A stretch of DNA of 36,060 nt from positions 38,438,758 to 38,474,817 of the forward strand of contig NC_057719.1 of the NCBI RefSeq assembly GCF_004010195.1, read 5' to 3'. Under the pieces are notes generated by a model. The model was not told where the DNA came from. It was given only the letters and a program-made list of their open reading frames with translations, and ran no database searches. The position numbers and the translations under genes were made by a program. The stretch is from Chiloscyllium plagiosum. Lineage: Eukaryota. This document shows, piece by piece, positions 15,101-18,100 of this stretch. Every line of letters starts with the position of its first letter. Within the stretch, counting starts at the first letter, position 1.

Positions 15101-18100
15101 TATCCTACTTGCTTTCTTTAGATGCCATGGAAGAGGTTTCCCTATCACTATTAATCTAGTACAGTATATTAGCAAAAACCACAAAATATTGCCTGGTCAC
15201 CAGATCCATCTCTTTTCAATATCTGTTTGAGGTTGAGCCGAAAGGTTGGGCACCTTGATATGGTATTTGACCCCAAAATAGATCAGCAACATACACATGC
15301 CATGATCTATATCCATTTCCTTTCATTGTCAAATTCTATTCCTGCCATAGCTCATCTGCTGCTGAAACCCTCATCCATATGAGGGTTACCTCTAGACTTG
15401 ATTAGTTTAACACATTGCTGGCTGACCTATCATCTTCTACATTCCATAAACTTAAGGTCAAATGAAACTCTGATCTACATCCTAAATCGCACAAATACCA
15501 TTCAACTATTAAAAAGCCTGCTGTCCTACAGCAACTTTCAATTTTGTTTTCATGACTTTCAAATTCTTTTCCTTGTTCAGAAATTCCCTCATGGCTTTGT
15601 CCCTGTCTCCAACTCTAACCTCGTTTAGCTCTACAACATTCAGATATATCTGCAATCTGCATTTTAATTGCTCTACCATCGACAATTGTACTTCCAAAAT
15701 GTTAAAGATCCAAGCCTGGAATTCCCTATCTAAACCACTTCTTTTTCTCTTCTTTTTAGAGGTTCCTTAAGACAATGCATCTGCTCTAATGTTCTCTTAT
15801 GTGGCTCAAATTCTGCATGGCATTGGTCTTGAAAGATGCCTTGGGATGCAAGCAGCTATACAAATATTAGTTACCAAATACTCTTGAAGAACAAATAATG
15901 AAACTAAACTGTTCCTCATAAATTATAATGAATATTCTTCCCCACACACATTGTGTCAAGAGATGAAAAGATATAACCGAGTAATTTGTTATTTTACTAT
16001 GATGTGAAAATAGACTTCCATTTTATTTTATTAGCAAACTATAGTGATCAAGAACATTCAAGAATATTAAAAACATGCTTCTTGATCATGAGGTTAGCAA
16101 CACCCATGTACAATTCAAGGCTTTTAATATAAAGATCATACAATTACAGAAAGCAAGTGCCATTACCTGAAGCTGTACGTGTAAGGTACTGTTTACTTCG
16201 TTGTTGTCTTGAAAGATTAGATTGGGAAGCACGTTTCTCTCTTAATTGTTCATCCTGTGATACTGGTGATACGCTCTATAACAAGTGAACGATTATATTT
16301 TAATTTGTTTTTCTTTTTTTAAAGTGCTCAATAACTTTATAAACATTTGAGTTGAAGATGAGCTTGTCTTGAGGATATAATCCTCTGCATTTTTAGATAG
16401 GTATTTCTACCCTGGTTAGGGAAGAGGAAGAGGAAGGGGAAAGCAGAGCGGAACCGTGCAGTGAAAAATGATCATTCTGGAGATAGATTCAGTCGAGTAG
16501 GCTAATGTGATAAGCGTGTTCAAAGTTAGTCAGAGGTGGTGTCAGGACATGGAGTCGAGGGGATGAAGGGGAAGGAAACTGAATGTGCTTAAGTTGACAA
16601 AAGGAAACAGATTAGTTAATTATGTCAGGAAAATATGCATCCAAGAAACTATTGTGCTATTTTCTGATGCCCATGAACATTTTTTAAAAGCCATCTAGAT
16701 TTCAGAAATTAAAATCTGACTATCAAATTCTTCATAAGGACATTTATACCAAAATCCAACTTTCACGTGGCTATTTTAGAGTGATTAACATTCAAAAACA
16801 ACAACAGGTGTTTGCTTGCTGTCTGTAAAGGTTTAACACTTCTAAATCCATAAAACATTTTATACAGTGAACACATTGAAAGGCTGTTACAGAACTGTGT
16901 AGTTAAAAACAACGGAACTAAACTATCAGAACACTTATTGGATATGTTAACTATAATTGCTACTTTCTGTATGATGTTCGCACAAGCATATTTTTCTGTG
17001 GTTACCCTGACAGTAAATGCACAGCCTATACATGTATAACACTTTAAATACATGGTGCCCATATGTTTCTTGATTTAGAAGCTACATTTCCATTGCAGTG
17101 TGAAACTCTCAGTATAAAGATGCTCTCTAATTAAAAGGAATGAGGTACACAGGATATAATGCTGAAAGAAAATTATGATGTACAAACAGTATATAATTCA
17201 CAGTTTAAATTCGCTGTGATGTTTTCTACTTTGATAAAGTTGAAGTCCATTCTGAACATTGCATATTCAATTACACTTAGAAATTTGTTTGAGACTCAAG
17301 ACTAATCCCAACTCCTCAGAACTTTTCATTTATGGTGTAAAAGAAAGGATGAAACAAATAATTACAGTAGTTCAGCTAATTTAAAAAATAATTTGGGCAC
17401 AAATTTCATCAATCTTATTGCACAGATTCCTAAGCTAAATTTGTATGCTAACAAAGACTGTTCAGATTAGGTGGATTGGACATGCTATATTGCCCATCGT
17501 GTGCAAGGATGTGCAGATTAGGTGGATTAGCCACAGAAGATGCAGGGCTACAAGGATGGGGTAGGGGGAAATGGGTCTGGGTGGGATACTCTTCAGAGGG
17601 TCGGTGTGGACTCAATAGGTTGAATGGCCTGCTTCCACATTGTAGGGATTCTATGATTCAAAATGGAAAATAAAATATCAGTGGACAGAAATATGGCACT
17701 TTTACTATCTATTTCCCATATTTACCAGTGGGAGATCCATAAGTACTTGCATGCCATCTCCTGGCCCCATGTGAGCTACATGGTTAAAGTTTGTTGGATT
17801 CGATATCAGTTTTGACCGCATCTCAGGATCTCTCAGCATTTCCCTGGTGTGAAAACACAGGTAATCAAAGTAAGTCACAAGTTTTGGAATTGCTCATAAA
17901 AATGGTTCAACATCTTTTAAATCACATGCATTTAACACTAAAGACCGTCTTCATCCCCTCGACTCCTACCGTCTTTGTTGTAACCTTTCCTCTTCTGGTA
18001 TCTTAAAAGCAAACCGCTTTTTGCTACGAGTTCTGACCATCTGTTTTCTGCTGTTGTCTGAAGTGTCTGGCACACTCAAATTATCTCCCTCTGTAAATAA

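Follow-up and report, generated by a model that had tools for sequence, protein, structure and literature searches.

A probable young templated insertion behind a perfect long-range inverted pair at a CDC42BPB splice donor in Chiloscyllium plagiosum

The window analysed here is a stretch of 36,060 nucleotides (nt) of the Chiloscyllium plagiosum genome (NC_057719.1:38,438,758-38,474,817), and all coordinates given below are positions within it. The region under study belongs to a minus-strand gene which an earlier note on this DNA had named as MRCK-beta (CDC42BPB); protein matches to the beta family agree with that name, and the CNH exon is 100% identical to a protein cluster with Chiloscyllium, Stegostoma and Rhincodon members. 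Along the minus strand, a constitutive exon is followed by a 126-nt intron, a first CRIB exon, a 1,138-nt intron, a 177-nt cassette exon, a 135-nt intron and a further constitutive exon (Table 1). The beginning of the 126-nt intron (arm 1) and a piece of the cassette (arm 2) form a perfect 18-bp inverted pair, which the earlier note had interpreted as an evolved RNA switch for exon choice. Our analysis suggests that arm 1 is probably a young templated insertion, that is, a template-switch scar, rather than an old splicing switch.

Table 1. Features of the CDC42BPB region in window coordinates
Feature	Position	Strand	Support
Constitutive CDC42BPB exon upstream of the CRIB exon, ending at the donor that arm 1 follows	17970..18090	-	Translation fits beta proteins; 126-nt intron spliced out in 3/3 RNA runs
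Flank template: last 6 nt of exon plus donor GT, AAGACGGT	17968..17975	-	Direct repeat at 17944-17951
Arm 1 (intron +4 to +21), matching cassette nt 20-37 perfectly in inverted orientation, probable templated insertion	17949..17966	-	10 bases missing within 17940-18009 in organism B; substitution spectrum
Direct copy of exon-end/donor flank, 3-nt overlap with arm 1 (AAG)	17944..17951	-	
Inverted copy (GTCTTT) of flank 17971-17976, 2-nt overlap with the direct copy	17940..17945	-	
126-nt intron containing the 27-nt patchwork (17940-17966)	17844..17969	-	Bin 17870-17939 without RNA depth in 3/3 runs
First CRIB exon, looped out by the predicted helix	17726..17843	-	Pfam PBD PF00786, 21.7 bits against a cut-off of 21.3; included in 3/3 RNA runs
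Ancient second-CRIB cassette exon, 177 nt, decayed in the window	16411..16587	-	Homologues in 15/180 beta proteins (8 species); also in the alpha paralogue
Arm 2: old coding sequence at cassette nt 20-37, putative template of arm 1	16551..16568	-	13/18 nt identical in the bird locus
In-frame TGA, cassette codon 33	16489..16491	-	
Next constitutive exon	16167..16275	-	Joint 16275-17726 (cassette skipped) in 3/3 RNA runs; peptide found in beta proteins

The two arms are exact reverse complements over 18 bp; 11 of the pairs are G-C and each arm contains a CpG, and the arms occupy the intron and cassette positions that had been assigned to them. The exact 18-mer occurs twice in the genome of 3,556,477,427 bases, both times at the CDC42BPB locus, while one-mismatch matches were found at 8 further places, against 5 matches for a reversed control pattern. 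Since the 18-mer is confined to the locus and the intron with arm 1 is single-copy, neither arm lies in a dispersed repeat, as the earlier note had supposed, and such an origin was rejected for both. Its rough chance figure of about 0.01 per 36 kb also holds, our estimate from base composition being 0.016. For 18-bp inverted pairs within 1.5 kb the expectation is 0.0013 per window and about 130 genome-wide, so that a chance pair is unlikely in any given window and not negligible across many of them.

Arm 1 is the first piece of a patchwork. All 27 of the 27 nt that follow the donor GTA (17966-17940) are covered by three templates: the 18-nt inverted copy of the cassette comes first, its last 3 nt start an 8-nt direct copy of 17975-17968, and the last 2 nt of that copy start a 6-nt reverse complement of 17976-17971. 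The complete coverage by three templates, whose copies overlap at their two internal junctions by microhomologies of 3 and 2 nt, bears the signature of a templated insertion. In this sense, we found the bases to be identical to sequence of the locus itself, with internal microhomology and with a cluster of mutations relative to a close relative. Across 17,650 window positions, a direct 8-nt repeat so placed occurs at 0.37% and both local features at 0.057%, by criteria that were chosen after the site was seen. The patchwork, and also the in-frame TGA of the cassette, are read from the genome assembly only.

Of 24 sequencing runs listed for the locus, four were aligned to it, three of them RNA (one from the window species, organism A, and two from organism C), all as contigs. 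A relative about 3% diverged from the window (~97% identical), organism B, provides a contig of 562 letters over 572 places, with 10 gaps. The depth of 11.0 in the bin 17940-18009 equals 12.8 x 60/70, and therefore all 10 missing bases of organism B lie in that bin. Six of these bases are placed at 17940-42, 17944 and 17946-47, and four lie further right; at least 4 gaps (10 bases) thus fall within about 30 nt, where 0.2 would be expected (P ~6e-5). None of the substitutions listed for organism B, 38 out of 42, falls in arm 2. The gap positions fit two cases, one in which arm 1 is replaced and one in which a 14-bp core of the pairing is left.

The kinds of substitution bear on these two cases. 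Fifteen substitutions of organism B outside the short interspersed nuclear element (SINE) are known by kind only (4 C>A, 3 C>G, 2 C>T, 2 T>A, 2 T>C, 1 T>G and 1 A>T), this number being the tally of kinds minus 40 listed places and 7 kinds shared with the same-species run, which were taken as SINE consensus. C>A or C>G account for 7 of these 15 versus 2 of the 40 listed, and A>G or G>A for none of the 15 versus 14 of the 40. A simulated replacement of the C-rich arm, in which random 14-mers were aligned, predicts 2.7 C>A, 1.2 C>G, 1.5 C>T, 0.8 T>A and 0.4 T>G. The likelihood ratio for a replaced arm over an intact core is 47-860, the range depending on the background assumed. The spectrum indirectly favours a replacement of arm 1 in organism B, whose arm letters at 17948-17969 are known through gap counts and spectrum only.

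The earlier note held that a lack of complementarity in relatives with conserved flanks would speak against its switch. Such a lack appears to be the case, firmly for the alpha paralogue and a bird, at the peptide level for whale shark and indirectly for organism B. Donor-to-cassette pairing reaches -15.3 kcal/mol in the shark alpha gene, with 213 of 300 shuffles as good, and -18.6 kcal/mol in the bird beta gene, with 76 of 300 as good. In the whale shark protein 9 residues of the exon are missing, including the second half of the arm-2 stretch. At the nucleotide level, the bird DNA has the ancestral bases in arm 2, and arm 1 matches the derived arm-2 state: the window encodes PSSPRLH where 7 other species have PSSSRHH, PSSSQQH or PSSSRHS. 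This bird-like beta locus comes from metagenome contigs and was assigned by peptide match. A pattern scan for vertebrate DNA found three loci in metagenome contigs (one beta and two alpha-type), none in viral contigs and no shark or ray intron; one of the alpha-type loci contained no cassette motif when four short motifs were used, and the other ends 590 nt after the donor.

At the RNA level, the predicted fold bears out that the CRIB exon is looped out, and formation of the helix is favoured thermodynamically. The 18-bp helix (-36.1 kcal/mol) is present in both the minimum free energy (MFE) and the centroid folds of a 1,496-nt pre-mRNA segment, where it is predicted to gain four more pairs across the exon end and to close a loop of 1,380 nt. 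The donor-proximal 40 nt pair with the cassette at -40.3 kcal/mol in the window, and none of 300 shuffles was as good. No competing pairing was seen in 16120-18120, where the next-longest stem (14 bp, G-U allowed) touches neither arm, and Rfam gave no match at E <= 1 in 16100-18300. The idea that the helix serves to have the TGA edited in the RNA was set aside, as the stop lies 60 nt beyond the helix and stems from missing bases.

The putative cassette proved to be a genuine exon with the boundaries proposed, as judged from its homologues in a set of 180 beta proteins (the best 120 of 1,348 matches plus the listed cluster members). Among the 176 proteins that reach the region, 15 contain the cassette and 161 lack it; those that contain it come from Callorhinchus, Heptranchias, Pristiophorus, Rhincodon, Latimeria, Protopterus and two Anolis. 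Phase 0-0, a length of about 60 codons, the place after the CRIB exon and an NFEHxYH motif assign it to a second-CRIB class which MRCK-alpha shares in all these traits. In the same genome, the paralogous alpha gene has at this position an exon that is open over 60 codons and carries a second CRIB-like motif. This alpha exon is annotated in RefSeq/UniRef isoforms and was found in 10 such proteins, which come from sharks, turtles and mammals; the beta copy is broken in the window species. The first CRIB exon is also kept in 15/15 of the cassette-bearing beta proteins, which indicates tandem inclusion of the two and not mutually exclusive use. A mutually exclusive choice was rejected on this ground and because the phases differ (2-0 for the first CRIB exon). 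Searching proteins with the window cassette itself scored none of 633 candidates, the homologues being found via the alpha exon and the CNH exon, and a search of the own genome with its first 32 residues returned the self match and one weak match (E 1.9) only.

Identity of the cassette to that of Heptranchias is 83-87% in chimaera, coelacanth, lungfish and anole, against 77% in whale shark and 64% in the window, from which we conclude that, judged by sequence identity, constraint on the exon is relaxed in carpet sharks. The cassette frame is not open in the window, a point that the earlier note missed: it has an in-frame TGA, and the 32 residues before it give no PBD match in Pfam, the Heptranchias beta protein having two PBD stretches. 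At 16534, 16494 and 16487, organisms B and C carry 3, 2 and 1 additional bases, and organism B has one further base at 16521 and an early stop. With the differences listed, the cassette of organism C reads open over 183 nt, a provisional reading as 1 gap and 8 substitutions exist besides those listed. In the bird-like locus the cassette survives as a relic some 510-690 nt beyond the donor; it carries two frameshifts, and a GT is missing where its own donor is expected. The exon is open in chimaera, several sharks, coelacanth, lungfish and anoles and broken in the window species, organism B and the bird, so that it has lost its frame at least three times, separately. The window TGA lies 78 nt before the cassette donor (more than 50 nt from a later junction) and three exons follow. 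The other traits of a regulated poison exon, inclusion and a conserved stop, were not found: there is no cassette joint among those listed in the three RNA runs, and the stop is not conserved, as the break differs in organism B and organism C looks open. On the side of annotation, some isoforms end by read-through of the cassette donor, and the second-CRIB exon may double as an alternative last exon.

The second-CRIB exon of MRCK-beta is present in database annotations, and the papers listed by our literature search do not describe it. An old exon common to MRCK-alpha and MRCK-beta and repeatedly lost from beta is relevant to the way in which these Cdc42 effectors adjust their binding of GTPases. 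Alternative splicing of the GTPase-binding domain was reportedly described by Tan and colleagues in 2003.

In transcripts, the 126-nt intron was removed in all three RNA runs and had no RNA depth in its middle, and the joints of cassette skipping (a 1,450-nt skip) and of short-intron removal reached depths of 22.5, 141.6 and 268.3. Cassette inclusion was not seen among the joints listed in these runs (55 joints exist besides those listed), and contigs miss rare forms; likewise, no contig retained the 126-nt intron, a form that could be missed if rare. One low-depth contig (4.8) from organism C is unspliced across the cassette donor. Rare or tissue-specific inclusion could occur, as contigs drop rare forms. 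The evolved switch of the earlier note is therefore unsupported: the pairing appears unconserved, the exon under its supposed control cannot make a full-length protein in the window species, and the RNA runs gave neither cassette inclusion nor retention of the short intron.

The most probable explanation for the whole arrangement is an event of repair or replication restart, at a break or a stalled fork in the first bases of the intron, during which a DNA 3' end would have switched template more than once. This end would have copied 18 nt of the cassette, 1.4 kb away and in inverted orientation, and then 8 nt directly and 6 nt inverted from the adjacent exon end, the pieces being joined via the 3- and 2-nt microhomologies. 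The resulting patchwork would have taken the place of about 17 nt of older intron, with the donor still usable. The inverted orientation may reflect a loop-back within a long single-stranded tract or copying from the gene's own transcript. The pre-mRNA helix (-36 kcal/mol) would then be a by-product of having an inverted copy within one transcript, and the exon it pairs with would already have been under relaxed constraint in this lineage of sharks, and it is skipped in the transcripts observed. Formation of the helix would require that the short intron has not yet been removed when transcription reaches the cassette 1.38 kb further on, and U1 probably engages the donor before the distant arm is transcribed. 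The likelier effect on splicing, if any, would be a slight extra masking of an already skipped exon. The sequence and its uniqueness, the anatomy of the patchwork, the homology of the exon, the 10 missing bases of organism B and the skipping in three RNA runs are observed; from them we infer that organism B lacks most of arm 1, that the window species gained the arm and organism B did not lose it, that a repair pathway of this kind acted and that the helix has no regulatory role.

Several points weigh against this reading. Neither the bird exon, a relic, nor the alpha exon, a paralogue, represents a lineage with a working beta exon. In organism B, one 4-base gap at 17949-17952 would leave the 14-bp core, with -28 kcal/mol, and the spectrum argument assumes the row ordering of the alignment table and the counts of rows derived from the SINE and from chance. 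The polarity is drawn from the match to the derived arm 2 and not from an outgroup shark intron start. The RNA evidence consists of three contig sets, one of them from the window species, and a template distance of 1.4 kb is atypical for the polymerase-theta pathway.

The pairing may instead be a functional splicing duplex limited to this lineage, either through a core of about 14 bp common to bamboo sharks or as a new 18-bp helix kept by selection, which would mask the 5' part of a cassette subject to nonsense-mediated decay (NMD), possibly depending on the order of intron removal. We consider this unlikely. Both folds contain the helix and extend it over the exon end, arm 2 is unchanged among the listed substitutions of organism B, the gap table is compatible with an intact core there, and the position of the TGA ahead of the cassette donor and further junctions, as well as the skipping of the cassette in the single RNA run of the window species, would agree with it. 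However, the cassette is skipped equally in the two organism C runs and is absent from most beta proteins, and as far as seen skipping needs no duplex; the spectrum disfavours an intact core, no intron-retention contig was found, and from general knowledge U1 should bind the donor before arm 2 has been transcribed. A single repair accident could also have made, at one stroke, a working long-range splicing duplex that hides a nonsense exon (present or later) and was kept by selection, which seems to us quite unlikely. If true, it would mean a long-range RNA control element caught at its birth, with a sister species without the duplex as a natural control.

That the purine-rich start of the intron and a pyrimidine-rich stretch of the exon are complementary by chance, the indels of organism B being an unrelated local deletion at a small palindrome, is improbable in our view. 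The number of 18-bp pairs expected per genome and the very many windows examined speak for it, and shuffled donor segments reach -24 kcal/mol on the cassette. It would nevertheless require a second coincidence, the adjoining 8-nt flank copy, and a third, a mutation cluster exactly at the arm. Finally, an artefact of assembly or library, such as a chimeric junction, or a private allele of the sequenced individual is very improbable. It is true that no same-species read or contig covers 17870-17969 (in the one organism A RNA run) and that the best DNA runs, which share 92-96% of words, are uninformative on the presence of the 27 nt. On the other hand, same-species exonic and intronic pieces match the window without differences where aligned, the donor is used as annotated, and assemblers presumably seldom make junctions of several templates.

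The proposed scar has parallels in known mutational processes, considered here as far as the available portions of the cited papers go. Germline insertions made from several templates and joined by microhomology are documented (Osia et al., 2021; PMC8421209), and for polymerase theta the combination of direct and inverted flank copies is a signature, with templates usually within 30 bp and distal ones in <0.1% of repair (Carvajal-Garcia et al., 2020; PMC7165422). Insertions of the type of MMBIR (break-induced replication mediated by microhomology) or FoSTeS (stalled forks that switch template), and those of polymerase theta, share with our case a short insertion with replacement, several templates both direct and inverted, and 2-3 nt of internal microhomology (PMC8421209, PMC7165422). 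In contrast, the main 18-nt template lies 1.4 kb away here, versus the 30-100 bp typical or searched in those papers; the two small pieces fit the distance of about 30 bp of polymerase theta and the 18-nt piece does not. Also unlike MMBIR and polymerase-theta cases, the product here extends over a splice donor and can pair with an exon that belongs to the same transcript, and its entry junction is not scorable without the ancestral sequence. Template switches make perfect inverted repeats and RNA stems and appear as mutation clusters (Loytynoja and Goldman, 2017, PMC5453318; Monttinen and Loytynoja, 2022, PMC8794818). At our locus, too, the repeat is a perfect reverse complement, and indels and substitutions are clustered there against a close relative. 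Those models describe a short-range, single switch and return that gives local hairpins, whereas here at least three templates would be needed and the helix closes a 1,380-nt loop. Inverted insertions have also been reported in yeast (PMC11724301).

With regard to splicing, the geometry is shared with the R1-R5 elements of ATE1 (PMC7797038), the pairs of conserved complementary regions (PCCR; PMC8052449) and the docking and selector sites of Dscam1: a stable long-range pairing over splice signals with an exon looped out. Such duplexes show conservation and competition between partners and have been confirmed by compensatory mutation, whereas here there is one pair whose conservation appears to fail, and the CRIB exons are used in tandem. 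CDC42BPB is absent from 5 supplements of PMC8052449 and from 1 of PMC11632617, the full PCCR catalogue lying probably outside those files. A literature search that covered few subscription papers found neither a CDC42BPB duplex nor template switching as the origin of long-range splicing pairs. If the scar is what it appears to be, it serves as a caution, as perfect, unique and CpG-bearing complementarity at splice signals can arise by one templated mutation and mark youth, not function. Additionally, templated mutation may be a raw material for long-range splicing structures, which are otherwise hard to derive stepwise.

Some further observations were made at the locus. A TGCATG (17925-17930) lies 40 nt into the short intron, and the bird intron has no TGCATG at the corresponding place. 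An ACTAAC occurs inside the beta cassette (16525-16530) and just downstream of the alpha cassette; TGCATG and ACTAAC are candidate Rbfox and QKI motifs, respectively. The last exon has a tandem CAGCAG acceptor (9112-9118), with isoforms with and without the Gln across sharks and rays, and the cassette acceptor offers the same one-residue choice in coelacanth and chimaera. The CRIB exon of a third MRCK paralogue is 63% identical. The looped-out intron contains, at about 17470-17660, a high-copy SINE-like element with an aligned depth of about 1 million. Longer inverted matches than the 18-mer also exist in the window (31 exact, 19-41 nt), all within an inverted pair of repeat copies of about 3.5 kb (11250-14780 and 23960-27125) that are 82-92% complementary and lie in the introns flanking the CRIB region. 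These copies carry fragments of open reading frames (ORFs) similar to reverse transcriptase, and the repeat is presumably a long interspersed nuclear element (LINE). They could form a pre-mRNA duplex far longer than the 18-mer, which may be a substrate for editing or an aid to back-splicing of the enclosed exons.

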